A stretch of DNA of 64,000 nucleotides from a virus (IMGVR_UViG_3300047561_001900:7822-71821), one strand, 5' to 3'; counted from the stretch's first letter, positions 14,808-39,728 are shown. Numbers and translations are program-made. The notes: generated by a model not told the origin, from the letters alone.

Positions 14808-15410
14808 TTATCTGAAGGAATTATGCAGATCTTCTGCCAACTTCAAGTTATAATCATATGACTTGTTAACCAGATCAATGAACACATCTTCATGCATTGC
14901 AGCACTCTCAATCAACCCACGAGCCAGCTTGATGCATTGCCTCACATTTTTAAATTTTAACATGGAATTGTATTTGAAATTTTTACTCATAATTTGACCA
15001 CCATACAAATCACCCAACCATCGGATGTAAAAATCAGAGATCAATTCAAAATCTGTTTTGTCAATACACGCCTTGACCCATTCGCTGTTGAACAGCTTGT
15101 ATGTTGTTTGCACTTTTAATGCATCTTGATAATTGCGAATATCTTCTGTGATCTGTGCATCTCTGTGCAATGGGGAGAATTGTGCTGGTTGTAACAGCCG
15201 ATTTTCAATGATGGTGTAGATGGGGGAGAGATTCTCAATATAAGCAAAATACTCCTCTGCAGAAATGTCACCGGTGATTAGTTTGTGAATGAAAGGATGA
15301 GACTCTATTGCATCATGTTTGGCACGCGTTTGTGCTTTTAATTTTTTTGCAAAAGCAGTGGGTCTGTAAGCAGTAATAACATTAATCAAATGCAAAAAGT
15401 CCATAGCCAT
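14808..15410 (-). CDS. Heme oxygenase-like protein
   Basis: Proximal helix LKAQTRAKHDAIE, distal helix YIRWLGDLYGGQ. Confidence 0.8.
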   Translation of the reverse strand: MAMDFLHLINVITAYRPTAFAKKLKAQTRAKHDAIESHPFIHKLITGDISAEEYFAYIENLSPIYTIIENRLLQPAQFSPLHRDAQITEDIRNYQDALKVQTTYKLFNSEWVKACIDKTDFELISDFYIRWLGDLYGGQIMSKNFKYNSMLKFKNVRQCIKLARGLIESAAMHEDVFIDLVNKSYDYNLKLAEDLHNSFR

Positions 15411-16615: not shown

Positions 16616-16666
16616 TGAAAAATAAATCTAATGTTTTTCAGTCTCACCTGTCTAATATGGTATATG
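16616..16666 (+). repeat. 51-bp direct repeat upstream of the PEP-CTERM cassette (copy 2 at 22186-22236)
   Basis: TGAAAAATAAATCTAATGTTTTWCAGTCTCAMCTGTCTAATA-nnn-TATATG; 5 mismatches over 51 nt; ends on an ATG. Confidence 0.9.
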
Positions 16667-16843
16667 AAAGGTAACACTTTAACTTTCCATGATGAGAAGA
16701 AGGTCGCTTTAACACGCGATACAATAGGACAAGCCGCAATGAATGCGGCTTTTTTTATGGTCAATGGTATTCTTTGGTTATTATTCTTTCCTTATGAGTT
16801 TTATCTGAAGCTAGAAAGATCTTTGAAGGCTTTAAAAAAATAG
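16664..16843 (+). CDS. 59-aa putative membrane/leader peptide
   Basis: MKGNTLTFHDEKK...FFMVNGILWLLFFPY; start at end of the repeat. Confidence 0.5.
   Translation: MKGNTLTFHDEKKVALTRDTIGQAAMNAAFFMVNGILWLLFFPYEFYLKLERSLKALKK
16731..16757 (+). terminator. Intrinsic-terminator-like hairpin inside the leader ORF
   Basis: AAGCCGCA-ATGAA-TGCGGCTT followed by TTTTT. Confidence 0.6.
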
Positions 16844-16847
16844 ATTT

Positions 16848-17594
16848 ATGAAAACAATAACAACAACAATACAATCCATGAAACCCAAATCCCTCCTATC
16901 CCTGGCCTGCACACTCGTGTTGCTTTGCCTTGGTGGCCAGGCAAATGCAGCATTGACCGTAATCAATGGTGACTTTAGCAACCTGACAGGCCTAACTTAT
17001 GTGGGAGGCCCTTGGTATTCTGGCGTTCCCTTTGGTTGGAACACTGACTTTACAAACACAATCTACACAGTCAAATATACTGGCATCACTAATGGCGCTT
17101 ATGATTATGTTGCCAACTTGTCTCAGCTCACCTCTACGTCTCCTAATTTCTATGCTCTCTCTCAAAGCGTCGGAACTACGGATTATACAGGCGATGTCAC
17201 CGTAAAATTTGATTTAGCAAACATTAATGGCGGTGGATATGATGTTGGTGTTGCTATCTTCCAAGGCCCTAATTCCAACACTCTCCTTGCGAATCGTAGC
17301 ATTCAGGACGTGTTCCCCGATGCTAACGGGGTTCCTCAAAACGGTGTTGGAACATTTGAGCTTACAGCATTGAATGTCGCCTCTGGAAGCTTGCTTCAGA
17401 TCGCTTTCTGGACAACTGGAGGCACTCCTTCTCTTGATAATGTTCAAGTTTCTATAATCCCTGAACCTACAACATTAGATTTAATCTCGCTACCAGTAAA
17501 GGTAGGTCTTTACATGGTGGATACCATCTCAAAGAATATTTACACATGTGGAATAAACCCTAGAAAGTTTAATGCGCTAACCATTGTGTACTAA
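16848..17594 (+). CDS. PEP-CTERM-type surface protein with degenerate sorting tail
   Basis: Signal peptide ending ANA; IIPEPTT present but not followed by a clean TM helix and basic cluster. Confidence 0.7.
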   Translation: MKTITTTIQSMKPKSLLSLACTLVLLCLGGQANAALTVINGDFSNLTGLTYVGGPWYSGVPFGWNTDFTNTIYTVKYTGITNGAYDYVANLSQLTSTSPNFYALSQSVGTTDYTGDVTVKFDLANINGGGYDVGVAIFQGPNSNTLLANRSIQDVFPDANGVPQNGVGTFELTALNVASGSLLQIAFWTTGGTPSLDNVQVSIIPEPTTLDLISLPVKVGLYMVDTISKNIYTCGINPRKFNALTIVY

Positions 17595-17597
17595 TTT

Positions 17598-18344
17598 ATG
17601 AAGAAAACAACAAACATAATAAAGAGGGCATTGAGCTTTATTGCCGCTGCTTTCATTGCAACTGCAGCTAGTAATACACAGGCAACTACTGTGTATTGGA
17701 ATAATGACAATGGATATGGAGACCGCACATGGTCGGACGATTACAATTGGAATGGTGGTGCTCCCACTAGCCAGGATAATGCCCTGATCATGGGAACTGA
17801 ATGGAATATTAGTCTCAACAACATGCCAATTGTAAATTCTGCGAATAACTTTGCAAATCAAATTTATGTACGCGCAGGGGCAGGCATATCAATTGTTACA
17901 GATGGATTGCTCACTGCAAACGATCTAATCACAGGCTTAGATGGCAATTCAAATGTTGTTGATATTTCAGGAGGCCTTCTAACATTAACAGGTATTTTAA
18001 ATCTTGGTGCTGGCGGTCATGATGGCAAGGTGAACATATCAGGTGGAAGCTTGGTTACAAAAGGTCTTTCCATTAATACTATAGGAGGTGCAGGGGTAAA
18101 TATAGGTCAATCTGGAGTATTTGTTGTTGAATACACTGCTGCTAATCTGAGCAATATCAATTATTGGATTGGAGTAAATGCTATTACTGCAAATGGTGGC
18201 ACTGGAATAGTGGATGTAAATACCACCACTTACGCAGATAAAATTGTTCTCAGTGCAATACCAGAACCCAGCATCTATGCAAGTTTTGGCATGGGGCTTG
18301 TTGCTCTAATTTCAGTACACAGGTTCAATAAAAAAAGGATATAA
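17598..18344 (+). CDS. PEP-CTERM protein
   Basis: Signal peptide; C-term AIPEPSIYASFGMGLVALISVHRFNKKRI. Confidence 0.85.
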   Translation: MKKTTNIIKRALSFIAAAFIATAASNTQATTVYWNNDNGYGDRTWSDDYNWNGGAPTSQDNALIMGTEWNISLNNMPIVNSANNFANQIYVRAGAGISIVTDGLLTANDLITGLDGNSNVVDISGGLLTLTGILNLGAGGHDGKVNISGGSLVTKGLSINTIGGAGVNIGQSGVFVVEYTAANLSNINYWIGVNAITANGGTGIVDVNTTTYADKIVLSAIPEPSIYASFGMGLVALISVHRFNKKRI

Positions 18345-18348
18345 ATTT

Positions 18349-20817
18349 ATGAAAACAACAAACATAATAAAGAAGGCATTGAGCTTGATTGCCGCTGCTT
18401 TCATGACAACCGCAGCCAACAATGCCCAAGCAGTAGTATTCCTATGGAACAACAGCGGCTCAAACTGGACATCACCCACCAGCTGGACCAATGGCATACA
18501 ACCATCATCCACCAGTTCCAGCACCACCACAGATGAAATTCAGTTTGGTAATGTTGGAGTGAGTAATAATACAGTCATACTCACTTCTACTAGAGCTGCA
18601 AGAAACATCACATTCCTAACTAATGCGAATGCATATGCAATCAACAGCTTCAATGGTGCACAAACTGTATCATCTAGTGGAGGTATTACAAATAACTCCA
18701 CTGCTACTCAAACATTTAATATATTAGTAGAAAATGCTAACGCCAGCAACACTTGGTATCAAACTGCAGGTGGTGCATTATTATTCAATAATGTGGCTTC
18801 ACTCACCACTGCTTCTTCTGCCACATCCAGAACTTTAACTCTGGCAGGAGATGGTGCATTCACATTCAACAATGAATTGAAACAAGGCGGTACATCCACA
18901 GCAGGCATAGTCAAATACATTGGAGCAGGCACTGTCACAATGAATGGCACCAACACACTGGGTGGTGGTTTTGAAATAACAGGAGGAGGCACAGTTGTTG
19001 TGAATGGGGGCACTGGTGTGGGTCAAGGCTTAATAACCATGTCAAATGGCACTTCAAAACTAGTAGTCAATTCAGCTAACGGGTTATCTGTTCAGAATAG
19101 TTTCAAAGGGTCCAGCAGTCTAGCCAACATGAGCACTGTGGATCTGGCTGGGTCTAATTCTGTTGCTGTTACCACTTATGCTATTAACCAATATCAAGGC
19201 GGTAACATGAACTTCACCAATCATGGTGGATACAAAACACTGTTACAGTTTACTAATGCTGCTAATACATTAACTCCATCTTCAGGTTCAGGTGGAGGCA
19301 GAAGATTGTTCAACAACAGCACCAATTTAACTGTGCAGTTTGATGGTACCATGGACATTGGAGGCACAGTTGCAGATACAAGTCTTGTGGGTGGTGTGGG
19401 TGATTTTCTGTTCAAAGGATCTGTGTTCAATACAGCTACTGCACTCAGAGGATTGACCAAGTCAGGCACAGGCACAGCCACCTTTCAAGCAGTCAATGCT
19501 TACAATGGTGACACCACCATACAAGAGGGTACATTTGTAGTGGATACTGCTGGTTCCATTGCTTCCAGTGCTGCCATAATATCAGGGGGCACTTTGCGTG
19601 TCAAAGGCACAGCTGGCACAGTGGCTGCTAACAGTGGAAGCTTGATAGTGGACAGCACAGGCACCATTGGCAACACTTCCATTGGGGTGAGTACCACAGT
19701 AACCATGGATGGCACAGCAGGCACCATAACACAAGGTGGAGGCACTTTGAACTTGAGAGGAACTGGCAGCACATTCTCCATGTCTGCAGGCACTGCCACA
19801 GTGTACAGTGGAGCATTTCTGGGTGCTTCCACTCTCACAGGAGGCAGCTTGCTTAACAGTGGCACAGTTGGGGAGACAACCATTGCCACAGGCAGCACAT
19901 TTGATGTGAAGACAGGGGGTACTGCTTCCAAGGCCACTGTGAATGGAGGCACTTTGATTGTGGGAGGATCTGTGGGGCAAACTGTTGTAAACTCTGGCAC
20001 AGCCACCATCAATTCCGGTGGCAATGCAGGCACAACAACTATCAATGGCAGCACATTGGATGTGTATGGAAACACTGGTGTATCCACTGTTAACACAGGA
20101 GGCACACTCAATGTGAAAACTGGTGGCAGTCTGTTAGGCGCTGCCACTGTGGGTGGAGGCACATTGTTGGTGAGTGGAACTGCTGGTAGAGTCATAATCA
20201 ATTCTGGCACTGCCACTGTTAATACAGGTGGTGCCATTGACAGTACCACTGTGAATGGTGGTCTGTTGTCTGTGAATGGCACTGCAGGTGATATTTTAGT
20301 TAAAACTGGAGGCACTTTGGGTGGCTCTGGTAGTGTGCAAGGACTCACACTCAATGGTGGTACTGTGGCCCCAGGCAACAGCCCGGGTCTGCTCACTGCC
20401 TATGAGTTAAATGGCAGCAATGGAACATTTGCTTTCCAATTGGGAGCCCCCACTACCAGAGGAGTCACTTATGATGGCATTGATGTGACCACATTGCTCA
20501 CTCTGGGCACCAGCACTGCATTCACATTTGAAACTTTGGACAGTTACACATATGCCATGGGAGACGTTTATGACTTGTTCAATTTTGCATCCATAGAAGC
20601 ATCTGCATTTGATAGTGCAGTGCTATTGGCTGCTCTGCCTGACTTGAACACTGCCAGTTCTGACTTGAAGTGGAATGTGAGCAACTTCACCATGGATGGC
20701 ACAGTGGGTGTCATTCCTGAGCCCTCCACTGCATCACTGTTGTTAGGGGGAGGTGCCAGTTTGATTGCTCTCAGAGTCATGAGGAGAAACAAATGCAAAC
20801 ACCAAGCACACTCTTAA
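18349..20817 (+). CDS. Large PEP-CTERM protein with autotransporter-associated beta-strand repeats
   Basis: GLTKSGTGT...YNGDTTIQEGT repeat, G/T-rich beta-helix, VAPGNSPG; C-term VIPEPSTASLLLGGGASLIALRVMRRNK. Confidence 0.9.
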   Translation: MKTTNIIKKALSLIAAAFMTTAANNAQAVVFLWNNSGSNWTSPTSWTNGIQPSSTSSSTTTDEIQFGNVGVSNNTVILTSTRAARNITFLTNANAYAINSFNGAQTVSSSGGITNNSTATQTFNILVENANASNTWYQTAGGALLFNNVASLTTASSATSRTLTLAGDGAFTFNNELKQGGTSTAGIVKYIGAGTVTMNGTNTLGGGFEITGGGTVVVNGGTGVGQGLITMSNGTSKLVVNSANGLSVQNSFKGSSSLANMSTVDLAGSNSVAVTTYAINQYQGGNMNFTNHGGYKTLLQFTNAANTLTPSSGSGGGRRLFNNSTNLTVQFDGTMDIGGTVADTSLVGGVGDFLFKGSVFNTATALRGLTKSGTGTATFQAVNAYNGDTTIQEGTFVVDTAGSIASSAAIISGGTLRVKGTAGTVAANSGSLIVDSTGTIGNTSIGVSTTVTMDGTAGTITQGGGTLNLRGTGSTFSMSAGTATVYSGAFLGASTLTGGSLLNSGTVGETTIATGSTFDVKTGGTASKATVNGGTLIVGGSVGQTVVNSGTATINSGGNAGTTTINGSTLDVYGNTGVSTVNTGGTLNVKTGGSLLGAATVGGGTLLVSGTAGRVIINSGTATVNTGGAIDSTTVNGGLLSVNGTAGDILVKTGGTLGGSGSVQGLTLNGGTVAPGNSPGLLTAYELNGSNGTFAFQLGAPTTRGVTYDGIDVTTLLTLGTSTAFTFETLDSYTYAMGDVYDLFNFASIEASAFDSAVLLAALPDLNTASSDLKWNVSNFTMDGTVGVIPEPSTASLLLGGGASLIALRVMRRNKCKHQAHS

Positions 20818-21452
20818 AGCATTTAAAACCATTGATGTGCCAAGGCTTCACATTAGTTGAAATGGCTGTGGTCATAGTTATAATGGGATTATTGATGACC
20901 ATTTTATTTCCAGGATATGCAGCTGTTAAGCGCAAGTCATCTCAAGCTGCTTGTGCATCCAACATGAAGCAAGTAGGCACATCAATTGTGTTGTTTGCAG
21001 CAGATAATGATGGTTGGCTTCCACCTGGACCTAGCGGTCAGACAATCAATTCGTTCATTAGTGATTCCAGATTTGGAGCTAATACATCCAATGTTGTAGA
21101 CACATCTAATCTGGAATATTATCTTACAAATTATATCACCACTACATCTCTAGGTAAAAAGAGAAAAGGCAATCCAGTTTTTTCATGCCCGGCTCATGAT
21201 GAAAAGCGACCTTTGATTTGGAAGAGAGGATCTTGTTTTGGTGGATCAGGCGGGCAATATGGTACACAAAATTCTGAAAAACTAATTGCAGTAGATACAA
21301 ATGATTATTTTCTGGTTGACTTCACTAAAGCTTTTACCAATCATTCTACTGCATCTTTAGATCGGACAATTAAAAATCCACATGGAGCAACCAGAAACCT
21401 GCTAAGAACAGATGGCAGTGTGACCACAGAACTGGATACAAAGGCCAGGTAA
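20793..21452 (+). CDS. Prepilin-type N-terminal cleavage/methylation protein with H-X9-DG motif (DUF1559-like)
   Basis: G|FTLVEMAVVIVIMGLL, CASNMKQVG, C-terminal H-GATRNLLRT-DG. Confidence 0.9.
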   Translation: MQTPSTLLKHLKPLMCQGFTLVEMAVVIVIMGLLMTILFPGYAAVKRKSSQAACASNMKQVGTSIVLFAADNDGWLPPGPSGQTINSFISDSRFGANTSNVVDTSNLEYYLTNYITTTSLGKKRKGNPVFSCPAHDEKRPLIWKRGSCFGGSGGQYGTQNSEKLIAVDTNDYFLVDFTKAFTNHSTASLDRTIKNPHGATRNLLRTDGSVTTELDTKAR

Positions 21453-21916
21453 TGGAGTATGTGTCTTTATCACAGGCTATTAAGAGCGCTTCAAATCTTA
21501 ATGCACCTTCCACAGAGTATCTTAATAATTTCCTACCTGCTTATAAAAAGTACCATCACAGGCAAAATTTCAGAAGAACAGTTTGCAAAATTGGTTCAGG
21601 CTTTGCAGCGTTTATAGTTGCATGTTTCTGTTATGCATCTATAAATAATCATAACAAGCTGGACATTGACACAGCTTCAGGAACAGACATGGCACAACAC
21701 AACACACATGGCAAGCAAGTGGTATTTGAAGGTGATGTAAGAGCTGTAACTGACTTCATGAGAGAACATGTGAAAGAGAAGACCAAGACTTTGCATTTGC
21801 GCGATTATTTTGAATCAGATGTGTGGGGGGTGTATGTGGAAGGGGAAGACAAGTTCCGCTACTATTATCAATGCTTAGGACATGGCAGATATGCAGTTTT
21901 TGTCATCAATGAATAA
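21452..21916 (+). CDS. Single-pass membrane protein, anti-sigma-like
   Basis: N-terminal PSTEYLNNFL...HHRQ segment, then TM helix GFAAFIVACFCYASI, then extracytoplasmic domain. Confidence 0.5.
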   Translation: MEYVSLSQAIKSASNLNAPSTEYLNNFLPAYKKYHHRQNFRRTVCKIGSGFAAFIVACFCYASINNHNKLDIDTASGTDMAQHNTHGKQVVFEGDVRAVTDFMREHVKEKTKTLHLRDYFESDVWGVYVEGEDKFRYYYQCLGHGRYAVFVINE

Positions 21917-22283
21917 GATACCTCTTGTTGTTGGTATTTGTCTTGCTGGTTGTATTTTTTACACTGCATACAGCCCACATGCATCCATGGTGAAACAACA
22001 AATAGATACATATGGCATGGATTTTGAATATGTGACACCAGAAGGCTCTTGTTTCACTCAAAATATAGAACCCATTGGTCATGACAGCCACAAATACATT
22101 TTAAGCTTGGGCAAACCTGTCAAGCCTGCAATTGCAGAAGAGCCTTTGTATGTGATGGTGGGGTACACCATGAAACAAGTGCGTCTGAAAAATAAATCTA
22201 ATGTTTTACAGTCTCAACTGTCTAATACTTTATATGATAAAGCCATTAATTATCCTGGTTCTGCTGGCTCTGATGGGTCATAG
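21909..22283 (+). CDS. Small exported/membrane hypothetical protein
   Basis: MNKIPLVVGICLAGCIFY hydrophobic N-terminus; reads through the 51-bp repeat. Confidence 0.55.
   Translation: MNKIPLVVGICLAGCIFYTAYSPHASMVKQQIDTYGMDFEYVTPEGSCFTQNIEPIGHDSHKYILSLGKPVKPAIAEEPLYVMVGYTMKQVRLKNKSNVLQSQLSNTLYDKAINYPGSAGSDGS
22186..22236 (+). repeat. 51-bp direct repeat copy 2, upstream of FecR gene
   Basis: Matches 16616-16666. Confidence 0.9.
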
Positions 22284-23106
22284 TGCCATTGCTTCTGTTG
22301 TTTCATTTGTAAAAAATGATGTGCACAGCATCAAAGCTACAAACAAAGTTGCAGCTGCTCTAAACGACAAATTAGAATCTGACACTCAAATAGGCACAGG
22401 AGACAAGAGCATGTGTGAATTGTCATTTGATGACAAGTCTGTAACACGCATAGGAGAACATTCTGTCTTCTCATTCCAGGAACAAGAGCGTTTGATCAAA
22501 TGTGGTGATGGTAAGTTTCTGGTGTCCAAAGATCCTGACACAGCACCCATCACTGTTACTGCAGGTGGTGTCACTGCTGCTATTGCTGGCAGCACTGTGT
22601 TGTTTGATGTGAAAGGTGGCATAGCCCATGTGGCTGTGGTGGAAAGCACTACAGGTGTGACTGTGACTGATGCAAATGGCAAAGTTGTTACTCTGCAATC
22701 TGGTGAAGGCATTGCTGCTGCACCAGGTGGCTTGACATCCTCAGCGCCTCGTCCTGTGGATGTGAAGGCAATGACTGAAGCATCACCGCTGTTCACTGAA
22801 GCAGGATTGGCTCCTCTGGCCAATGCAGCTGCAATCAAAGGGGTAGTGGGTGCTCAAGATATTGCCAAACAAGCAGGTGCATCCTTTGCCAGTGAAATCA
22901 ATGATGTGATGTCTGGTAAGATGGATGGTGCCACTGCATTGGCCAAGAATGCTGGCATGGATGTGCCTGATATTGATACTGCTGCAGGTGCTGAGACAGC
23001 TTCCAGCAACAACAATTCAACACCACCAAACACACCACAACCAAATCTGCAACAAGTGCCACCGGTCAATTCTAGACCCAACCCATTTGAAGCTACACCC
23101 ATTTGA
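22234..23106 (+). CDS. FecR-domain exported protein
   Basis: Signal peptide MIKPLIILVLLALMGHSAIA; IGTGDKSMCELSFDDKSVTRIGEHS and TAAIAGSTVLF FecR-like strands. Confidence 0.8.
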   Translation: MIKPLIILVLLALMGHSAIASVVSFVKNDVHSIKATNKVAAALNDKLESDTQIGTGDKSMCELSFDDKSVTRIGEHSVFSFQEQERLIKCGDGKFLVSKDPDTAPITVTAGGVTAAIAGSTVLFDVKGGIAHVAVVESTTGVTVTDANGKVVTLQSGEGIAAAPGGLTSSAPRPVDVKAMTEASPLFTEAGLAPLANAAAIKGVVGAQDIAKQAGASFASEINDVMSGKMDGATALAKNAGMDVPDIDTAAGAETASSNNNSTPPNTPQPNLQQVPPVNSRPNPFEATPI

Positions 23107-23226: not shown

Positions 23227-24222
23227 TTGAGTGCTGCTCCTCTGAGCATGCCTTTGACATCTCAATACTATGTGGATGCCAACAGAACTGATGATTACAC
23301 ACAAGATGGCAACATATTAACACCATACAAAACATTGAGTGCTGCTTATGCAGCTGCAAAAATTGGAGCCACCAGACTCAATCCCAAGTACATCAACTTG
23401 CTCAGCAGCATCACTGAAAATCTCACCATGGACACCGGTTATGTGGGATTGCAAGGATTCACCAATTCTGGTGTAAGAGCTCCCTTGTATTTGAATGGCA
23501 CCATCACCATTGCTCCTACTGCAGGCATCATCACTGACAATTTTTTTGGCATTACAAATTTGGCCATTCTCAAACCTGAAGTGACCAGTGGCAATTGCAT
23601 TGATGTGCTGGGAGGTGCTGTACCCCTGAGAGTATTCCTGGAATCTGTTTGGCTTCAAAATGGAAGCACTGGTTCTTTTGGGGTAAACATTAATAACACT
23701 GGTGCATCAAGTGTTGTTAATGGGCAACTGTGTCAATTCAGCCCTTTTGCCACTGGTGGCGGTATCAATGTGATAAATGGCATTTGCAACATGAGCATTT
23801 GTGATTCCACTGCAGGTGGTGCTGCATGTGTGGCTATGTTCAATGTGCAGAGTGCAGGTGTGCTCAATTTTACAAACTGTCAGTTGGAAGGAACAGCTCA
23901 ACAAATGATAAATTGTGTGGGAGGCACCTATGCAATTAGCAATCTGATCATGACTCAGACCTTGATCACAAACAGTCTGGCCACTGGCCATGGCATCACA
24001 CTGAGTGCAGGTGCCATAGCCAACTTGGCTAATAGTGGTTTCAACATACTCACTGGCGCTGGAGCCAAAGCAATCAATGGTGTGCAATCTGCCAATCTTG
24101 CCACACTGCCATTTTCTCTGGTGTTCTTCAGCAATGTATCTTTTGCCAATGCCCCAGGCACCACACTGGTGAGAAACACCACTGTCACCACCAACAAGGC
24201 TGCTTATTCAGTCATGAGTTAA
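23227..24222 (+). CDS. Beta-helix (pectin-lyase-like) protein, possible tail/receptor-binding protein
   Basis: YYVDA...DGNILTPYKTLSAA motif, N/G-rich repeats; frame stays open upstream to 23113. Confidence 0.6.
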   Translation: MSAAPLSMPLTSQYYVDANRTDDYTQDGNILTPYKTLSAAYAAAKIGATRLNPKYINLLSSITENLTMDTGYVGLQGFTNSGVRAPLYLNGTITIAPTAGIITDNFFGITNLAILKPEVTSGNCIDVLGGAVPLRVFLESVWLQNGSTGSFGVNINNTGASSVVNGQLCQFSPFATGGGINVINGICNMSICDSTAGGAACVAMFNVQSAGVLNFTNCQLEGTAQQMINCVGGTYAISNLIMTQTLITNSLATGHGITLSAGAIANLANSGFNILTGAGAKAINGVQSANLATLPFSLVFFSNVSFANAPGTTLVRNTTVTTNKAAYSVMS

Positions 24223-28795: not shown

Positions 28796-29587
28796 TTGAA
28801 TAAAAAATATATCATCTTTAATTGCACTACACGACCCGCCGGCGGGCTAGCGGATAGACTCAAAGGATTAATATCTACATACGCTTTATCTAAAAAATTA
28901 AATCGTGAGTTTGTTGTCAACTGGACATTTCCACAAAAACTCAGCAGTGTACTAGAGCCAAACACATACAACTGGCTACCGCGACCCATTCAGGGTCTCA
29001 CTCAACAAGATTACTTTTTAATTGACAATGATAGCTTCAATCAACACAAACATCTATTTTCACCAGTAAGTGAGATGAACTTTCCAGAAGATCTGATATC
29101 TATCAGAACAAATATTAACTTCTTACCTCTGCTCGATATGAAACAAAGCTTTGCAAATTTATTTGAAGAACTATTCAAGCCAAAATTTACAGTCCCGTCT
29201 GTACAGGAGTATGTTGGATTTAGTGCGCGGTTTGGAGGAACACAAAGCAATTGGGCGGATTCAGATTTTGATAAGATTGTAACCTATGACTATGCTTTCG
29301 AGAGCTTGCAAGAACAAATGTCTAAAAATAAAAATAAAAAACTTTTCATTTGCACAGACAGTAGTGCTTTTTTGGATTTCCTAAAAGATAAAGATGTAGA
29401 CTTCCTCACAACGGAAGGCTACGCTGAGCATATTGATCATGCAGGCTGCACTGAACAAGGGTTTAAAAAAGTATTTGAAGATTTCTTTATACTAAGGCAA
29501 TGCGACCCAATACTAACAATCAAGGGCGAATTTGCAAAGACTGTAATTAGTTCTTCTCCTACTGGCAAAACATTAGTAACACTGTAA
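28796..29587 (+). CDS. Fucosyltransferase-like (NodZ/O-FucT fold) glycosyltransferase
   Basis: GGLADRLKGL, LFICTDS, EDFFILRQC motifs. Confidence 0.6.
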   Translation: MNKKYIIFNCTTRPAGGLADRLKGLISTYALSKKLNREFVVNWTFPQKLSSVLEPNTYNWLPRPIQGLTQQDYFLIDNDSFNQHKHLFSPVSEMNFPEDLISIRTNINFLPLLDMKQSFANLFEELFKPKFTVPSVQEYVGFSARFGGTQSNWADSDFDKIVTYDYAFESLQEQMSKNKNKKLFICTDSSAFLDFLKDKDVDFLTTEGYAEHIDHAGCTEQGFKKVFEDFFILRQCDPILTIKGEFAKTVISSSPTGKTLVTL

Positions 29588-29594
29588 GTACATC

Positions 29595-29816
29595 ATGGGA
29601 GCTACAAAATCAACAGCAAGAACTGGGTCCAAAACCTCCATGCACAAGATGAGGTACATGTTAGTCAACAATGAAAAGCAATTGGTTGCTCCCATTTGGC
29701 ACCATGGAGCACGGGTGGGGCATGGCAACTATATGACTGGCACAGTGGGAGGTGTCACAGTAGAGGATAGTAATGGTCGCCCCATTCCTTTCAAACAAAT
29801 TGGCTTCACAGAATAA
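29595..29816 (+). CDS. Small hypothetical protein
   Basis: 73 aa; TGTAAGTA late-like motif upstream. Confidence 0.6.
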   Translation: MGATKSTARTGSKTSMHKMRYMLVNNEKQLVAPIWHHGARVGHGNYMTGTVGGVTVEDSNGRPIPFKQIGFTE

Positions 29817-29840
29817 GCTTGATCTTACCGACATTGCATT

Positions 29841-29848
29841 TATAAATA
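29841..29848 (+). promoter_or_regulatory. Perfect T4 late promoter TATAAATA upstream of tmRNA
   Basis: Exact T4 late consensus 38 nt before the tmRNA 5' end. Confidence 0.65.
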
Positions 29849-29886
29849 GATGGTAAGGTGTTACCTTATATTGTTCTTTAACAACT

Positions 29887-30292
29887 GGGGCTGTAATGGT
29901 TTCGATTGAATGGTGGAGCTTATGAGTGCAAGTACTGGGGCATGCCAGTATAAAATAGCAACAAACCTTAAATGCCGAAGACAACTTCGACATGGCTATG
30001 AGTCTCGAAGAGGCTGATGCAATTCTTGCTCAGCACAACTTTGTTGACGCAGAAGCTGAATTCGAACTAGTTTAGTTCGATCGTTCTACTGTAGATTAAA
30101 GCTTGTAAAGTAGAGCGTGTTACTGGCTTTCGTATAAATTGGGTTTTAACAGTTAATAGTTTATATGTATAAAATTGTTATGAATAAGGGCGTTTCGTTT
30201 AGTTCAATCCTTATGAAATTATAACTAAAATAAACTTGTAGTGCTTATGAATGAATCCATTCAAGACGAGAGTTCAATTCTCTCCAGCTCCA
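29887..30292 (+). ncRNA. ssrA: tmRNA (transfer-messenger RNA)
   Basis: 5' GGGGCTGTAATGGTTTCGA; 3' GACGAGAGTTCAATTCTCTCCAGCTCCA T-arm; acceptor GGGGCTG/CAGCTCC with G3:U; helix 2 TTGAATGG/CCATTCAA; resume context TAAAT-GCC at 29974; tag stop in hairpin TCGAACTA-GTT-TAGTTCGA; CCA not encoded. Confidence 0.93.
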
Positions 30293-30330
30293 GGCACTTG
30301 AAAATTTAATGTTGTCACTATACTTAATAG

Positions 30331-30933
30331 GTGGACATAACATATTATTGCTTACACCACCCAGTCCTACGAGATCGCAGACAAAATATGCAATTGCAGC
30401 TGGACAAGCTAAATCTGGCTGTTGAGTGGGTTTGTGCTTTTCTTCCTGAGGAAATTGAATTGCCTTCAACTGCCAAATTTAAGAATAAAAATGAATACTC
30501 TCTATATTTGAAACAGCAATACTGCATTGAACAACAAGTACAAAAAGAAATTCCGTTAATTGTTATACTAGAGGATGATGTGTTATTGCCGGATAATTTT
30601 TGTGACTTTGTTGACAACTGTGTATCAGAGTTTACTTTGTTGAAGGGTGATCTATTATTTCTTGGAACATGTTGCAATATAACTGCTCGTAATATTCAAT
30701 CAGACAGAAGTGTTTATTATGAACCTGATTATAAGAGCAGATGTGCACACTGCTATGCAGTTACTCTATCAGCAGCCAGAACCATTATGAAGCATATCGA
30801 TAACCGGCAATGCGCTTATGATTTTAAATTGAACCAAATTATTGCACAAGAAGCTCTTCGAGTATGCTATGCTGAGCCAGGCATACTACAAGCAACAGAA
30901 CAAAGATTAATAAAATCCTCACTGCAACTATGA
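30331..30933 (+). CDS. Glycosyltransferase family 25
   Basis: IVILEDDV, AHCYAVTLSAARTI. Confidence 0.8.
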   Translation: MDITYYCLHHPVLRDRRQNMQLQLDKLNLAVEWVCAFLPEEIELPSTAKFKNKNEYSLYLKQQYCIEQQVQKEIPLIVILEDDVLLPDNFCDFVDNCVSEFTLLKGDLLFLGTCCNITARNIQSDRSVYYEPDYKSRCAHCYAVTLSAARTIMKHIDNRQCAYDFKLNQIIAQEALRVCYAEPGILQATEQRLIKSSLQL

Positions 30934-31817
30934 CTACTTTAAAAATTTACTTTGAAGACATGTGGGGATATGATATGTACCAGTTCAATCCACATGACAA
31001 TTATTTTACAAATCTGTTTAAACAGGAATATAATGTAGTTATTGATCCGGACCCAGACATTTTAATATATTCAGTATTTGGCTCTAATAACACACGGTAC
31101 AATTGTAAGAAAATCTTTTTTTGTGGAGAAAATATAGGACACAATTTTAAACACCCAACAGACCAGCAATGTGATGCTTCACTCTCTCAATTTGCAGATG
31201 ATGGTAAAAATATATATTTTCCTCTATGGTGTATATTTGTTAACTGGTTTAATGAGCAGCAACCAAGACCTCTTCCATCAAACCCCACATTTCACACAAA
31301 CATACAAGATCTAATATCACCCTCTCTATATCCTAAAACTAAATTTTGTGCCTTCATTAATAACAACCCCATTGAGAATCGCATGAAAGTATTTGAGTTA
31401 TTATCCAAATATAAAAAGGTTGATAGTTATGGTAATCTTTTTAATAATGTGGATACTGTGTTAAGAGGATCAGAACAAGCGAAGATCAATGTTCTCAAGG
31501 ATTATAAATTCACTATTGCTTTTGAAAATTCCTGTCACCCTGGATATAATACAGAAAAAATTATTCAACCACTTTCAGTCAATTGCATACCCCTGTACTG
31601 GGGAGGAGATCATATTAAAAAGTATTTTAATATGAGTAAAGTGGTCTTTGCAGACAATTTTACCAGTTTCGAGTACATGGTGGAAGCTGTTATTAATATG
31701 GATAAAGATAATACAGTATATAATTATATCCAGACACTATCAGGTGTACAAGATGCATTTTTTGACTTCGCCCCACATAAAATTCTCTCGAGAATAAAAA
31801 CAGCTTTACACCTATGA
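30930..31817 (+). CDS. Alpha-1,3-fucosyltransferase-like (GT10)
   Basis: KTKFCAF, YKFTIAFENS...GYNTEKI, CIPLYWG. Confidence 0.85.
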   Translation: MTTLKIYFEDMWGYDMYQFNPHDNYFTNLFKQEYNVVIDPDPDILIYSVFGSNNTRYNCKKIFFCGENIGHNFKHPTDQQCDASLSQFADDGKNIYFPLWCIFVNWFNEQQPRPLPSNPTFHTNIQDLISPSLYPKTKFCAFINNNPIENRMKVFELLSKYKKVDSYGNLFNNVDTVLRGSEQAKINVLKDYKFTIAFENSCHPGYNTEKIIQPLSVNCIPLYWGGDHIKKYFNMSKVVFADNFTSFEYMVEAVINMDKDNTVYNYIQTLSGVQDAFFDFAPHKILSRIKTALHL

Positions 31818-32557
31818 AAACGGCAATCATGAAGCAACCGGCTGGTATTGGAGATATTTTATTCTGCCAAAAAATTGCAACAATGTTGCAACAAAAATAC
31901 AATGTTGTGTGGCCAATAATACCGCAGTATTTGGGTATTAAACCTTATCTGCCTCACATTAATTTTGTAGATGTTAATTCAAATTTTGAACACAGAGACT
32001 TTTATTCTAGTTGTCCAAAAGGTCAAATCATTGAAAACGACAATTGTATCATAATTGGCACAGATGGTACTCTTATAGGTGACTCTGGTGTGATGGTTTC
32101 AAAATACAAACTGGTTGGCATAGATCATACTGATTGGGTAGATTACATCAAGTTAAATCGTAATCCTATTAAAGAAGACGAATTGTTTTATAAGACCTTA
32201 CAACTCAAGGATGGTGAAGAATATATTATAATAAATGATACAACTGGGTCACTTGGACATGAAAGTGAAACAAAATGGGTCATTCCTCATCCCACAGATA
32301 GAAGAGTAATTAAACTGCAACTATTTGATGGCTTTGAAATATTTGATTGGTGCAAGGTGTTTGAAAGATGTTCAGAATTTCATATCATTGATACAAGCAT
32401 TTCGTACATAATTGAAAAAATTAATACTACAGAGAAGGTATACAAAATGTATCATCGATCCAATTCGGATGATAAAGATTTTAAAGACTTTACAAAGCTA
32501 CACAAAAAGCCACAAAGCCATGGAGGCCGAGAAACCCTTCAACCACCTATTGCATAA
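31814..32557 (+). CDS. Putative glycosyltransferase (GT-B-like)
   Basis: QPAGIGDILF N-terminal motif, IDTS motif; island context. Confidence 0.55.
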   Translation: MKTAIMKQPAGIGDILFCQKIATMLQQKYNVVWPIIPQYLGIKPYLPHINFVDVNSNFEHRDFYSSCPKGQIIENDNCIIIGTDGTLIGDSGVMVSKYKLVGIDHTDWVDYIKLNRNPIKEDELFYKTLQLKDGEEYIIINDTTGSLGHESETKWVIPHPTDRRVIKLQLFDGFEIFDWCKVFERCSEFHIIDTSISYIIEKINTTEKVYKMYHRSNSDDKDFKDFTKLHKKPQSHGGRETLQPPIA

Positions 32558-32581
32558 CTGAGTGATATTCTTAAATTATAC

Positions 32582-34120
32582 ATGGGACATATTAGTTTCT
32601 TTGATTTAAACGCTCTCAGGGAAACATTCAAAGCAGATGTTTTCGTAGAAACAGGAACGTATTTAGGTGATTCCTTAGCACACGCTGCAAAAGCAGATTT
32701 TAAGAAATTATATTCCATAGAAATTGCTCCAGATCTGGTAGCTAAAGCTCGTGAACGGTTCAAAGATGATCCACGCATTGAGATCATAGAAGGTTCATCC
32801 TCTGAAGTGTTGGAGCCTCTGTTAAACCGCACCAAAGAAAACATTGTGTTATGGCTTGATGCACACTTCTCTGGCTGTTATACAGATTATAATGGTGATC
32901 AAAACAAAGATAGCCGTGCACCACTTGAAGCAGAGATTCTTGCTCTGCAGAGAAGATTGGGCAAATATGCAGATGTTATTCTTATTGATGATTTGCGCTG
33001 CTATGAAGATAATATACCTGGCGTCACATCTTTTAATGATCACATGCGAAACATAGGGCAACCTCATGTCACACGTGAACAAGTGATTGGCACCGATTCT
33101 AAATTTATTTACGATGCATTCAATGCAACACATGAAATTACAAAACACCCCACGCACGAAGGATATCTGTCATTGATACCCAAACAAAATTTTATTGATT
33201 CATTCGATAAGGTGGTGTTCTTCAATCATGGTCATCTAGGCGATACTTTAATTGCAAAAATTTTTATTAGAGAGTTGATAAAGCAGTTTTCCACCAAAAA
33301 AACCGCAATTGCGAACAACTATAACATTCATTACATAAAAGACATAGTTGACGAGCATATTAATATAAACAGTATACCCATTGGTCGAGGTGATATTGAA
33401 AGGTCCATAGAGTTTAAGCTAGTGGACCGTATACTATACATTAACACATGGTTTGCTCCTCCTTGTGTGCAACCGTCTGATGCTGCAGAGGGTAACAGAT
33501 TTACAAGTGACATTCGGGATAGAGATGGTGTTGTATATAACTACGATTTGCATTTAAAATGCTTTGAACAAATTATTCACAACATTAATGATACCCACAA
33601 TACAAGTTTTGATTTGAGCCATATGTGGAAAAATAAAAACGAATATTTGCTAGAACTGTATAATGAAGATCTCGACACAAGCATAATACCTTTTATAAAT
33701 GATTTAAATTATAAAAAGATTCTTATTTTTAATCAAACAGCTACATCTGGTCAATCAGATAACGCTAACTTTTCACCTTTTATTGATGAACTAAAAAACA
33801 ATGAGCATGTTGTAATATATACTAGTCAGCCTAGTGTTATCAGACATCCCAGAGTTATAAATCTGCGAGATTATTATGGGGAGCCAGATCTGTTTAAAAC
33901 TGCTAGAGTTAGTATGAATTGTGACATTATTTGTGGCCCTAGTAATGCAACCATAATATCTACTTGGATTAAACCAAACCTCATGAACAATAAGATGCAC
34001 TACATTGTTATTAACTGTAACAATGCAGGTGAGGCAACATTGTTTAAAGACTTAGCATGCAAGACCACAGTTGTGAGTACAACCCATGCTTTATTCAACA
34101 AAATAAAGGAAATAATATAA
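32582..34120 (+). CDS. Class I SAM methyltransferase-like domain fused to GT-like domain
   Basis: VFVETGTYLGDS, WLDAH, LIDD; C-terminal half starts HGHLGDTL. Confidence 0.65.
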   Translation: MGHISFFDLNALRETFKADVFVETGTYLGDSLAHAAKADFKKLYSIEIAPDLVAKARERFKDDPRIEIIEGSSSEVLEPLLNRTKENIVLWLDAHFSGCYTDYNGDQNKDSRAPLEAEILALQRRLGKYADVILIDDLRCYEDNIPGVTSFNDHMRNIGQPHVTREQVIGTDSKFIYDAFNATHEITKHPTHEGYLSLIPKQNFIDSFDKVVFFNHGHLGDTLIAKIFIRELIKQFSTKKTAIANNYNIHYIKDIVDEHININSIPIGRGDIERSIEFKLVDRILYINTWFAPPCVQPSDAAEGNRFTSDIRDRDGVVYNYDLHLKCFEQIIHNINDTHNTSFDLSHMWKNKNEYLLELYNEDLDTSIIPFINDLNYKKILIFNQTATSGQSDNANFSPFIDELKNNEHVVIYTSQPSVIRHPRVINLRDYYGEPDLFKTARVSMNCDIICGPSNATIISTWIKPNLMNNKMHYIVINCNNAGEATLFKDLACKTTVVSTTHALFNKIKEII

Positions 34121-34380
34121 TGGCAAATTTATATAGCATAGCTGAGCTAATTGACAAGCTTATAATTGAGAACATTAAAATCTTCACTAGCAGGGAGAAG
34201 ATACATAACAAGTCTATATCTGATGAAGAATACGTTCAAAATGAAAATAAGATGAATGTATTAAACGAAAATAGAGGCATTATTATACGGTTTCTTGACG
34301 AAAAGATTATCAATGTGATAAATGAAACTGAACAAAATACCCATGTCAAAAATGTCAAAACCTACTATAATTCCAAATAA
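34120..34380 (+). CDS. Small helical hypothetical protein
   Basis: MANLYSIAELIDKLIIENIKIF; TAATG coupling. Confidence 0.65.
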   Translation: MANLYSIAELIDKLIIENIKIFTSREKIHNKSISDEEYVQNENKMNVLNENRGIIIRFLDEKIINVINETEQNTHVKNVKTYYNSK

Positions 34381-34567
34381 AGCGATTGAATTGATAACAG
34401 AGTTAACAGAGCTTTGGATCACTTGGATGCAGAATCACAACATATCGAACAATATCAGGATACCCTTGGAAGATCGCAGAGCTGGAGGTGAAAGATGTGA
34501 ATGCCTGCAGCGCCGTCGTCAAGAGATTCTCATTGAACTAAATGAAGAGTTTAACGCAATTTTATGA
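34322..34567 (+). CDS. Small hypothetical protein (start uncertain)
   Basis: 81 aa filling the gap before rmlD; overlaps previous ORF. Confidence 0.5.
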   Translation: MKLNKIPMSKMSKPTIIPNKAIELITELTELWITWMQNHNISNNIRIPLEDRRAGGERCECLQRRRQEILIELNEEFNAIL

Positions 34568-35451
34568 GCTATAAGATTTGGATTATTGGTTGCGGTGGCA
34601 TGCTAGGCAAGGCATTTTACAATAATTTTTCCAGCACATGTTCTATAGATGCTTATGATATAGATGTAAACGAAAAATGGCTAAAATATGGCGATATTAC
34701 AGATTATAATTTTTGTAGCAAAAGTATAGAGGTCTTTAACCCAGATATAGTAGTTAATTTTGCTGCACTCACAGATCTAGAATACTGTGAAGCTCATAAA
34801 GATCAGACATACAGTACAAATGCTCTTGGAGCCGACATTGTTACGCATGTGGCCAGGAAATTGAACAAACCTCTTATCCACATCTCGACTGCAGGTATTT
34901 TTGATGGCAAACAAGACACCTACACAGAATATGATACCCCTGTGCCACTCAGCGTGTATGGCAAGAGTAAGCTTGAAGGCGAGAAAGCTGTGCTGAGATA
35001 TAAGAATGCATACATCTTTCGAGCTGGATGGATGATGGGCAGCTTGCAGAAAGATAAAAAATTTATTAAAAAGATATACAATCAGATTCTTGAAGGCAAA
35101 AAAGAAATTTTCGCTGTTACTGACAAATTAGGCACCCCGACTTACACTAATGAATTCTCGTTAAACATCATACGGTACGCACAATCTGGATTATTACCTG
35201 GGTTGTACCACCTGGTGTGTGGTGGCGATTGCAGTCGTTTTGATGTGGCAAAGCACTTCTGTAATCTTGTTGATCCAAGTATCACTGTGACACCCACAAC
35301 ATCAGATTACTTTAGTAAGGAATATTTTGCTGTGCGCCCATATTCTGAAGCATTGATAAATTTTAAACTTAACTCGTTGAAGCAAAATTATATGCGCAAT
35401 TGGAAGGACTGTCTTGATGATTATACGAAAGACTTACTAGCTGTTAAGTAA
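34564..35451 (+). CDS. rmlD: dTDP-4-dehydrorhamnose reductase-like SDR
   Basis: IIGCGGMLG, NFAALTDLEYCE, HIST..IFDG, YGKSKLEGE, GTPTY. Confidence 0.85.
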   Translation: MSYKIWIIGCGGMLGKAFYNNFSSTCSIDAYDIDVNEKWLKYGDITDYNFCSKSIEVFNPDIVVNFAALTDLEYCEAHKDQTYSTNALGADIVTHVARKLNKPLIHISTAGIFDGKQDTYTEYDTPVPLSVYGKSKLEGEKAVLRYKNAYIFRAGWMMGSLQKDKKFIKKIYNQILEGKKEIFAVTDKLGTPTYTNEFSLNIIRYAQSGLLPGLYHLVCGGDCSRFDVAKHFCNLVDPSITVTPTTSDYFSKEYFAVRPYSEALINFKLNSLKQNYMRNWKDCLDDYTKDLLAVK

Positions 35452-36216
35452 TAAATTTTTATAAAAGATAAAATCTGCTAACTCTGTACTCTTCGCAATT
35501 GTTTTGTCATAATTATCTTGTAAAAAAGTTTCCGTTACCTGCAACCAGTCATTGACGAAAAGTATTGGACAATTCTTAAAGTACACCATCGGCAGACTCT
35601 TAAGGCAAATGGGAACTGTCTTGACATAGATAGATTCCCAAACCCTATGACAGTCAATGCTATTACCTGGAGGTGAAATTACATATTTGTAGCTACTAAG
35701 CTTCTCGATATAGTCTTCAAATGAGTGCAAATTAAAATCAAAATCAATAAAATTATAATCTTTTAATACTTTGAGTGCTTGCATACGCTCAGCAGCATTG
35801 GTTTCAATCTTATAATTACAATACACCAATTTAGTTTTAGGTGTATTTTTTCTGAGCACACGCACAAGAGCATCTATATTACCATGTGGCCATTCTGCGT
35901 TTGCTAATCCAATTGGTATTGCTTGAATCTTTTCATGCAATATATGCACATTCATTCCATACCATTTCTTAAGAAATGGGTTATTTAAAATAGGCTCATA
36001 GTTACCTGGTACTTGATAATCTGATTCGTGTGTAATGAGAGTGAATGGGTAATAGATTTTTGGTAATATATTGCTAGCAAAAAACTCCAAAAAATCTGTT
36101 TTAACAAAGAATATATTTTTCTCTGGCGTAATATCAATGTGGGTTTTTTTCTTTGATATGTAATTTGTTGATAATTCCAAGAATTTATCTGAAGTAATAA
36201 TATTTGCATTATTCAT
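35437..36216 (-). CDS. Exostosin-like (GT47) glycosyltransferase
   Basis: AIPIGL, YVISPPGNSIDCHRVWESIY. Confidence 0.7.
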   Translation of the reverse strand: MNNANIITSDKFLELSTNYISKKKTHIDITPEKNIFFVKTDFLEFFASNILPKIYYPFTLITHESDYQVPGNYEPILNNPFLKKWYGMNVHILHEKIQAIPIGLANAEWPHGNIDALVRVLRKNTPKTKLVYCNYKIETNAAERMQALKVLKDYNFIDFDFNLHSFEDYIEKLSSYKYVISPPGNSIDCHRVWESIYVKTVPICLKSLPMVYFKNCPILFVNDWLQVTETFLQDNYDKTIAKSTELADFIFYKNLLLNS

Positions 36217-37144
36217 GGAGAAACTTTTCTATAATTTTTTTGTTATGCAAATGTAAATTATACAAAGGAATCTGTTTACCTTCATAGATAACAAATGGCT
36301 TTTTATCAAAAATAACCTCAATCTGTTTTGAGATGAGCTGTTGGCCTATATAGTGTGCTGGTTCAGTATAGCCTTGTGGGTGACCATTATTAGTCCCCCC
36401 TAGGAATTGACCATATGAGGCGGGATCAAACAACATATTAAACTTGTCAAAATTTTGTGATTGCTCTCCAAAAGGCAAGCTTGGTAACAATCGAAAATAC
36501 TTCTTACTTCTAGCAATAACGTCAATAAAATTCATATCTGTGATGTAATCAAAATGGACACCGGTGGCCTGTTTTATAGCAATTTCACCCTTGATGAGCA
36601 GCTTCACAATTCTGTTAATAAAATTATTACCCGCTTTACTGTCTCTAAAATATAAGATTCCTGGTGCAGCAACAAGTGGTGAAACAACACTATAGCCGAA
36701 CTCACCCTCTTCAAATACAGAATTAAATTGTGTAAGGTTATCAGAGTAAACAAGATTATCAGCTTCTAGGTGTACCACATTCTCGAGATTACTCTTTTCT
36801 ACAAAAATACCTAAAATTATTAAACGCATGAATGCATGATAAAGAAAAACCTCATTCTTGTAACGTGGCCATAAAGATTCTAACAACTGCAATATCACTT
36901 TAAACTCATCTGTACAGAGGACACTGTCTTCAATGGAAATGAGATTGATGTTTGACGGTATACGAGTCTTAATTTTATCAATCTCAGCCTGCTGCAATAA
37001 AAAATAACTAGCGCTAAAGTTCTTTGAATTATACTCTATAGTTTTAAGGTAATAATCAGGGAGACAGGCATAACTATAGGTCTTTTTATCGCTTGCGTTG
37101 CCATTGAATTCACTGTTAAGAAAGACGTATACTAGATTACTCAT
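36209..37144 (-). CDS. Putative glycosyltransferase
   Basis: HLEADNLVY (DxD-like), FDPASYGQFLGG, NLHLH; island context. Confidence 0.55.
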   Translation of the reverse strand: MSNLVYVFLNSEFNGNASDKKTYSYACLPDYYLKTIEYNSKNFSASYFLLQQAEIDKIKTRIPSNINLISIEDSVLCTDEFKVILQLLESLWPRYKNEVFLYHAFMRLIILGIFVEKSNLENVVHLEADNLVYSDNLTQFNSVFEEGEFGYSVVSPLVAAPGILYFRDSKAGNNFINRIVKLLIKGEIAIKQATGVHFDYITDMNFIDVIARSKKYFRLLPSLPFGEQSQNFDKFNMLFDPASYGQFLGGTNNGHPQGYTEPAHYIGQQLISKQIEVIFDKKPFVIYEGKQIPLYNLHLHNKKIIEKFLHE

Positions 37145-37923: not shown

Positions 37924-37980
37924 GTTATAATTTTATTATGTGTTCATTGGATTTCAACAGACTATATCTTAATATACTAT

Positions 37981-38847: not shown

Positions 38848-38850
38848 TTG

Positions 38851-39714: not shown

Positions 39715-39728
39715 AAAACTCCAGATAA

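Follow-up and report, generated by a model that had tools for sequence, protein, structure and literature searches.

The stretch analyzed here (the window: 64,000 nucleotides (nt) of viral DNA, bases 7822-71821 of the 71.8-kb IMG/VR contig IMGVR_UViG_3300047561_001900, G000, estimated to be 34% complete) carries between positions 16616 and 23106 a co-oriented block of open reading frames (ORFs), designated p70, A248, B248, C822, D219, E154, F and G (Table 1). This block is a conserved accessory module of T4-like freshwater phages, and we put at roughly 0.55 the probability that its products are exported during infection, finished by host enzymes and used to re-dress the envelope of the infected cell, likely for superinfection exclusion or receptor masking. 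What the sequence data support well is the general part of this reading, namely a module whose products are predicted to be exported to the envelope and sorted by the host, while surface redecoration as the outcome is plausible.

The window encodes a T4-type replication set with a gp43-like polymerase (570 bits to phrog_262), gp46/47-like nuclease subunits and helicases in a PHROGs scan, in which the SbcC-like phrog_77 was also matched, and its closest isolates by polymerase are T4-like cyanophages at ~30% identity. The polymerase, the nuclease and a gp55-like gene place the phage among the T4-like (Straboviridae-type) viruses, together with a T4 gp23 capsid gene (312 bits) detected in a complete relative (G001; 217,413 bp, CheckV 100% complete) ~135 kb away from the module; in the contig of the window itself, which is 34% complete, no gp23 was found. 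The complete relative keeps the order p70-C-D-E-F-G, and the endonuclease and exonuclease genes that follow it are shared with the window, where the module is surrounded by nuclease, replication and accessory genes. Orthologues of C822 were recovered from 16 IMG/VR contigs of different samples with 64-88% identity, and synteny of the module extends over at least 16 independent contigs with the C-(D)-E-F-G order kept in most of them; A-C recurs in L123, B-C-D-E-F-G in L124 (a 133.6-kb contig) and C-D-E-F-G-H in L127. Homologues from several public sources form 73 (D), 63 (F) and 179 (G) clusters at 90% identity. The ratio of non-synonymous to synonymous substitution (dN/dS) against orthologues was 0.11-0.27 for C, D, E, F and G (0.12-0.16 for C822, 0.12-0.14 for D219, 0.12-0.27 for F and 0.14-0.26 for G), much like the 0.08-0.14 of the flanking nucleases, pointing to purifying selection.

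The host-like gene families and the slightly raised GC content of C822 (0.45-0.47 vs ~0.40 nearby) raise the question of whether the cassette is an assembly chimera or host contamination. However, a chimera is effectively excluded by the recurrence of this gene order, flanked by phage genes, in many assemblies made independently from different samples. Furthermore, a search with C822 alone against one genome per species from 185,579 species found no close cellular copy, and the best cellular homologue known from the analysis is 38% identical and located in a region of 65% GC. This explanation is effectively refuted, and the cassette is truly phage-borne and conserved in a lineage of ~200-kb T4-like freshwater (lake) phages. 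A previous inspection of the DNA (the sequence-only reading) had described a host-like surface cassette at this position, and all ORFs that it described were found on the plus strand.

PEP-CTERM/exosortase protein sorting, with substrates represented by TIGR02595 and PF07589, is said to have been described by Haft and colleagues in 2006. The architecture of such substrates was found in B248 and C822, each possessing a signal peptide, IPEPS, ~17 hydrophobic residues and a basic cluster. In B248 the tail runs from IPEPS through the hydrophobic stretch to HRFNKKRI, and this pattern is kept in a B orthologue (80% identical) upstream of C-D-E-F-G in L124. In all 13 complete C termini [VI]PEPS, ~17 hydrophobic residues and RRxK are kept while the hydrophobic residues themselves vary, and a six-frame search in which the C822 tail was scored alone gave 21.8 for PF07589 (cut-off 20.7), with 22.9-24.8 for three orthologues. 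The N-terminus of B248 is paralogous to that of C822 (52% identity over the first 52 amino acids (aa); an 82-nt DNA repeat of 87% identity). The proposed beta-helical nature of C822 was confirmed by PATR matches above cut-off at residues 368-398 (PF12951, 28.6 vs 27; TIGR02601, 30.5 vs 19.85) within a repeat region made of tandem rungs of 34-36 aa. The best cellular relative of C822 is a 590-aa PEP-CTERM protein of PATR type from a Verrucomicrobiota genome (38% identity over residues 13-445), whose genomic surroundings (19 kb) have a GC content of 65%. C822 thus resembles known exosortase substrates in its signal peptide, its PATR beta-helix, its C-terminus of PEP motif, transmembrane (TM) helix and basic residues, and its closest relative. 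By contrast, the genes here belong to a lytic-type T4-like phage in which no exosortase was found, and the phage proteins are strongly diverged from all cellular copies, with borderline scores from hidden Markov models (HMMs). The claim of three PEP-CTERM proteins stands for B248 and C822 and not for A248, which has a conserved, non-canonical IPEP tail only. In L123 a C orthologue is immediately preceded by an A248 orthologue of 84% identity whose tail is unusual in the same way, and no Pfam or PHROG family was matched by A248.

D219 carries a prepilin signal scoring above cut-off (TIGR02532, 26.9 vs 16.3; PF07963, 26.4 vs 21.2). The cleavage-site sequence reads ...CQG followed by FTLVEMAVVIVIMGLL, with G at -1, F at +1, E at +5 and a hydrophobic helix. 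Prepilin-domain HMMs match 25 of the 26 D family members, and the GFTLVE signal is kept in at least 90% of the 26 homologues. At the other end of the protein, H197-X9-D207G208 was found with H197, D207 and G208 invariant in all 26, and a CxSNMKQVG segment is present as well. The G/FTLVE prepilin with an exact H-X9-DG end proposed by the sequence-only reading is thereby confirmed, while the family it pointed to, TIGR04294, had no match at E <= 1 in any of the 26 members; with PF07596, 9 of 26 members were matched weakly and below threshold (best E 0.0016), D219 itself not being among them. The D profile links to colinear cellular proteins at 80-95 bits, the best of them 240-280 aa in length, and elements common to both are a GFTLIE-type signal, CxSNxKQxG, CPA and HG..RNYLYFDGHV, the last representing the H-X9-DG end. 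These are the elements by which D219 resembles the DUF1559 (PF07596, 'SBP_bac_10')/H-X9-DG prepilins of Planctomycetota, Verrucomicrobiota and Lentisphaerota (G/FTL[VI]E, CxSN[ML][KR]Q[VI]G, CPA, H-X9-DG). By contrast, D is ~60 aa shorter in mid-protein, forms one tight phage-only clade, and differs in its missing TIGR04294 and weak PF07596 matches.

When the D alignment was compared with species genomes, the best 80 loci comprised 35 from Verrucomicrobiota, 24 from Planctomycetota, 15 from Lentisphaerota, 2 from Armatimonadota and 4 others, so that 74 of these 80 belong to the Planctomycetes-Verrucomicrobia-Chlamydiae (PVC) group, in a scan whose search patterns favor this pilin style. In 4 of these 80 loci the H-X9-DG gene is immediately preceded by a PEP-CTERM gene, an arrangement also seen in the phage. 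A tree of D with 11 cellular H-X9-DG proteins did not resolve and names no donor.

The absence of exosortase and prepilin peptidase from the window, remarked on earlier, extends to the four phage records searched (G000, the complete G001, G002 and G003), in which neither PF09721 nor PF01478 was found. Likewise, no extracytoplasmic function (ECF) sigma factor was found in the phage; the sigma-70-like search gave a gp55-type gene only (56705-57301 in the window), beside the gp47/46-like genes. Given that the phage records searched lack the sorting enzymes, any use of the tails and the prepilin signal must depend on enzymes supplied by the host, and we regard this dependence on host sorting machinery as a sound inference. 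Exosortases are present in all four Verrucomicrobia genomes tested. C822 was matched in 30 of 301 Verrucomicrobiota genomes vs 1 of 301 Planctomycetota genomes, and G in 12 of 301 (best E 7e-20) vs 3 of 301 (best E 2e-4); protein-atlas neighbors agree with this. The host is thus probably a Verrucomicrobiota bacterium, judging from the relatives of these genes. The Planctomycetes/Verrucomicrobia affinity put forward earlier holds at the level of the PVC group and is shifted by C822 and G toward Verrucomicrobiota over Planctomycetota.

The same proteins might instead be virion adhesins or fibers, with C822, B248 and the neighboring leucine-rich repeat (LRR) and beta-helix proteins decorating the particle. 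C822 is a long beta-helix repeat protein, and BspA-type LRR proteins are encoded directly downstream of the module in relatives, the place that is occupied by H331 in the window. However, the conserved Sec, PEP-CTERM and prepilin signals direct these proteins out of the cytoplasm, the site of T4-type virion assembly, and the ~135 kb between module and capsid gene in the complete relative also speaks against a structural role, which we consider highly improbable.

E154 consists of a short basic cytoplasmic N-terminus, one TM helix and a 70-aa alpha/beta C-terminal domain. The earlier description of it as anti-sigma-like is right about a single-pass protein, the likeness being one of topology only. 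The AlphaFold model is confident for the C-terminal domain alone (pLDDT ~75), for which no convincing match was found among 48,161 PDB representatives (best Z 4.8, to the EnvZ periplasmic domain, and not meaningful). E154 is a single ORF in the window and in L011, while most relatives have two overlapping ORFs of 88 and 72 aa. In the split form (e.g. L003:3238-3695 and L005:13117-13574), the 88-aa part contains the TM helix and DIQTASG, the 72-aa part is in the −1 frame, and the junction lies at GAAAAATG, which could represent a true split or a frameshift site. A second single-pass protein, F, was missing from the earlier list; it is 124 aa long from 21909 or 133 aa from 21882. Its homologue clusters are phage-only and without a Pfam family, and its AlphaFold model (pLDDT 51) is too poor for use.

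Such small membrane proteins could also form a lysis or lysis-timing device, in which p70, E, F and the two-TM 88-aa protein of relatives would be holin-, antiholin- or spanin-like, G would be a sensor in the periplasm, and the PEP-CTERM and pilin genes would be neighbors of no relevance to lysis. E, which is N-in with a periplasmic domain, and F, which has an N-terminal TM helix and a periplasmic domain, resemble T4 holin T and antiholin RI in topology, and the small membrane genes are tightly coupled and conserved. However, scans against Pfam, NCBIfam and PHROGs gave no holin, antiholin, spanin or endolysin match, Z did not exceed 4.8 in the structure search, and one repeat element heads both p70..F and G, tying them to the C-D genes. 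A lysis function is therefore improbable.

E154 and G are further connected by a short motif. DI[DQ]TA[AS]G occurs just twice in all six frames of the window, as DIDTASG ~6 aa after the TM helix of E154 (nt 21662-21682) and as DIDTAAG in G (nt 22969-22989), directly before a Ser/Thr/Pro linker and the tail. Of the 120 listed G clusters 112 have it, as do all orthologues of E or of its 88-aa part, and the shared motif is real and conserved family-wide. The periplasmic protease LapG has TAAG as its dialanine target (bioRxiv 10.1101/198937), and both copies of the motif are predicted to face the periplasm. A further likeness to LapG/LapA proteolysis is that a sister sub-lineage encodes a TM-anchored C..H..D protein directly upstream of C. 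By contrast, the LapG family (PF06035) was not matched in the five Verrucomicrobia genomes searched, and cleavage here is purely hypothetical. The C..H..D protein (176-194 aa; NSCF, GHAV, YDPN) is encoded at L017:4057-4587, L014:9419-9985 and L012:9401-9985 and also in L004, L007, L009 and L015; neither Pfam nor the PDB sequences gave a match to it, and the window's contig and the complete relative lack it.

These features allow a more far-reaching version of the envelope reading, which we hold as a tentative possibility. In this version the phage would load substrates at once onto the Sec/exosortase, prepilin peptidase/pilus and FecR-domain/beta-barrel routes, with E and G matured by periplasmic cleavage at DI[DQ]TA[AS]G, and would thereby create a phage-specified surface on Verrucomicrobia. 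If true, it would be the first virus exploiting exosortase and would open the very large H-X9-DG/DUF1559 family to functional study for the first time.

G is a signal-peptide FecR protein, as proposed, with an FecR domain at residues 63-149 scoring above the gathering threshold (PF04773, 31.3 vs 24); PF04773 is precomputed on all 120 listed G homologue clusters. Because 179 homologue clusters begin near query residue 12 and cover 96% of the query, the start was placed at 22234 (MIKPL..., a signal peptide) and not at 22201. The mature protein comprises the FecR domain, DIDTAAG, the Ser/Thr/Pro linker and a conserved tail, PPVNSxPNPxEATPI. In some relatives G is replaced by a signal-peptide protein of 110-165 aa in which the tail (...PPV.S..P...ATPI) alone is retained, indicating that the tail is likely a functional element. 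Neither a cytoplasmic anti-sigma domain nor a TM anchor was found in G. Its relatives in Verrucomicrobia are FecR-domain proteins of 258-1588 aa with signal peptides and Pro-rich C-termini, some of them containing beta-solenoid regions. In 3 of the 4 loci examined, the gene next to the G relative encodes a ~320-370-aa protein whose last residue is F, and BBP2_2 porin matches were found in two of these proteins, one of them above cut-off. G thus looks like a periplasmic or surface FecR-domain protein and not like a sigma regulator. Clusters of secreted FecR proteins beside beta-barrel (BBP2_2-like) genes were seen in Verrucomicrobia at L111 (G056:C9:199000-216000), L112 and L113, and appear to represent an uncharacterised envelope system; one such cluster has genes for a DUF6249 membrane protein and an ECF sigma factor at its end.

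An FecR domain in G, together with the short basic cytoplasmic N-terminus and single TM helix of E and the one Verrucomicrobia locus in which four G-like genes end with an ECF sigma gene, could suggest interference with host ECF-sigma/FecR signalling, G or E titrating a host sensor or sigma factor. The jamming of a trans-envelope signalling system had been proposed for this cassette as an alternative. However, the periplasmic FecR domain is what G has in common with the FecR/PupR anti-sigma regulators of ECF sigma factors, and it differs from them in having a cleavable signal peptide but no anti-sigma domain, TM anchor or partner sigma, the phage sigma match being gp55-like only. Its cellular relatives are secreted FecR/beta-solenoid proteins beside BBP2_2-type barrels instead of sigma/anti-sigma pairs, and several relatives drop the FecR domain and keep the tail only. 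Signalling interference is thus quite improbable, and the earlier proposal is not supported.

The name of the FecR family (PF04773), given for iron-dicitrate sensing, also brings up a module for nutrient or iron/heme capture, boosting or redirecting host uptake as cyanophage PstS does. A heme oxygenase gene (PF01126, 57 bits) lies at 14808-15410 on the minus strand, 1.2 kb upstream of the module, and the cellular relatives of G reside beside porin-like beta-barrels. However, family scans detected no transporter, TonB-dependent receptor or binding-protein family in the module, no heme oxygenase was found near the 80 cellular D-like loci, and the flanks of the cassette in L011 differ, so that heme oxygenase is no fixed neighbor. 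We consider a capture function unlikely.

Combined with the conservation of the module, these results are consistent with the following route to a re-dressed envelope. B248 and C822 would cross the inner membrane via Sec and then be brought to the cell surface by host exosortase through their PEP-CTERM tails. D219 would be cleaved by host prepilin peptidase and incorporated, as an H-X9-DG subunit specified by the phage, into a pilus or pseudopilus system of the host. E154 and F would be seated in the inner membrane with their domains outside, while G would be released to the periplasm or outer membrane and could dock there on host envelope components by means of its FecR domain and Pro-rich ATPI tail. 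The net effect would be an altered envelope that blocks adsorption of further phages or of the phage's own progeny.

Exclusion or receptor masking is ranked first as the most likely purpose because the best-tested analogue is a prophage FimU pilin, and it is the part of the reading that we hold least firmly. The phage-encoded pilin P-FimU of F10-like Pseudomonas prophages was shown experimentally to join the host pilus and block adsorption of rival phages (PMC12952977). The likeness lies in a phage pilin-type protein that relies on host pilus machinery and, in the case of P-FimU, takes the place of a surface component. P-FimU differs in being a single gene of temperate phages that was tested by experiment (PMC12952977), whereas the pilin-like D belongs to another pilin family and to an exported module of several genes carried by a T4-like phage.

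Several points weigh against a re-dressed envelope. The evidence for it consists of genes and their sequence signals, and we infer the host phylum from gene relatives. Superinfection exclusion is less obviously useful to a lytic phage than to a prophage. Scored as whole proteins, the PEP-CTERM candidates stay below the cut-offs of both PF07589 (16.5-16.6 vs 20.7, with 16.6 bits for B248) and TIGR02595 (13.6-14.6 vs 16), so that for B248 and C822 it is the tail architecture and not the whole-protein score that agrees with this family; A248 has IPEP without a TM helix or basic tail in any frame. D is far from any cellular relative, its family profile scoring 434 bits within the phage cluster vs <=95 bits for cellular proteins and its clade branching off at 2.5 changes per site in the tree, and may have a phage-specific role. 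Finally, D, the C-terminal domain of E, F and the FecR domain of G are each absent from some relatives, suggesting that no single part of the module is indispensable.

Pilins, lipoproteins and exclusion proteins are examples of single exported proteins by which phages are known to alter the host surface, and the literature searched contained no description linking PEP-CTERM, exosortase or DUF1559 with phages. New relative to that literature is a whole conserved block directed to the PEP-CTERM/exosortase and PVC-type H-X9-DG pilin routes. It provides a strong clue to the host of an abundant lineage of uncultured T4-like phages from freshwater with genomes of ~200 kb, as well as compact, highly conserved versions of two protein families without known function in Verrucomicrobia/Planctomycetes, and the motif DI[DQ]TA[AS]G and the conserved ATPI tail offer concrete sites for experiment.

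Table 1. Features of the module and the adjoining gene, in window coordinates.
Feature	Coordinates	Strand	Description	Basis
Repeat copy 1	16616..16667	+	52 nt; promoter-like/regulatory element at p70 start (16664)	
p70 region	16664..16843	+	Possible small membrane ORF or structured 5' leader	Orthologues, hairpin
A248	16848..17594	+	Signal peptide; C-terminal IPEP, without canonical TM/basic tail	ORF, topology
B248	17598..18344	+	Signal peptide, PEP-CTERM-type tail	ORF, family scans
C822	18349..20817	+	822 aa; signal peptide, PATR/beta-helix, PEP-CTERM tail	HMMs, orthologues
D219	20793..21452	+	Prepilin, G/FTLVE, H-X9-DG end	HMMs, alignment
E154	21452..21916	+	N-in single-pass membrane protein	ORF, topology
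F	21909..22283	+	N-terminal TM helix and ~90-aa outer domain	Alignment, topology
Repeat copy 2	22186..22237	+	52 nt; covers F 3' end and G start	
G	22234..23106	+	Predicted secreted FecR-domain protein, 290 aa	PF04773, homologue starts
H331	23227..24222	+	Adjoining gene, module membership uncertain	Orthologues in viral contigs

The ORFs mostly abut or overlap on the plus strand, D219 overlapping the end of C822 by 25 nt, and PHROGs gave no match for A, B, E, F, G, H or p70. The two copies of the 52-nt direct repeat are 90% identical, one preceding p70 and the other, which forms the 3' end of F, preceding G. A core, CAGTCTCAnCTGTCTAATA, is kept upstream of p70 in L010, L011 and L018, and a shorter core, CTGTCTAATA, followed by 4-6 nt and then ATG, precedes the G orthologue in each of the six loci shown. 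The repeat differs from the early promoters of the window (TTGAC-N17-TATAAT-N6-ATG), and the T4 late-promoter word TATAAATA was not enriched (4 found vs 4.3 expected). By this arrangement the module appears to consist of two co-regulated units. No Rfam family was found in the module region.

The p70 ORF encodes 59 aa from 16664 or 70 aa from 16631, and in L010, L011 and L018 an orthologue immediately precedes C. For this ORF dN/dS was 1.1, dS being unusually low (0.25), and four phages hardly differ over its first ~125 nt. The best terminator-like site of the region is a hairpin at 16731-16751 (8 pairs, then seven T); no covariation was found in support of a leader structure. The p70 region may thus be a regulatory leader or attenuator, instead of or besides encoding a protein.

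H331 has a TTG start and no signal peptide and is possibly beta-helix-like, with a weak DUF4957 hint alone. Its orthologues are 75-92% identical in 8 viral contigs, being 3' of G in L125, L127 and L128 and occurring without the cassette in L126 and L129-L131. The BspA-type LRR proteins downstream of the module in relatives (L017:8692-11550, L014:14129-15229 and L012:13725-15557, with L014:15288-16094 listed together with a sulfotransferase) have a common MAFIVKRD N-terminus, lengths of 105-952 aa and no signal peptide, and from its gene content this downstream region looks like a hypervariable island of host-interaction genes. In the window itself, a run of glycosyltransferase-like genes was assigned to 28796-40538 by the sequence-only reading, and PHROGs identified the ORF at 60184-61419 as a glycosyltransferase; such genes could be part of the surface theme if PEP-CTERM proteins are glycosylated, as is often assumed.

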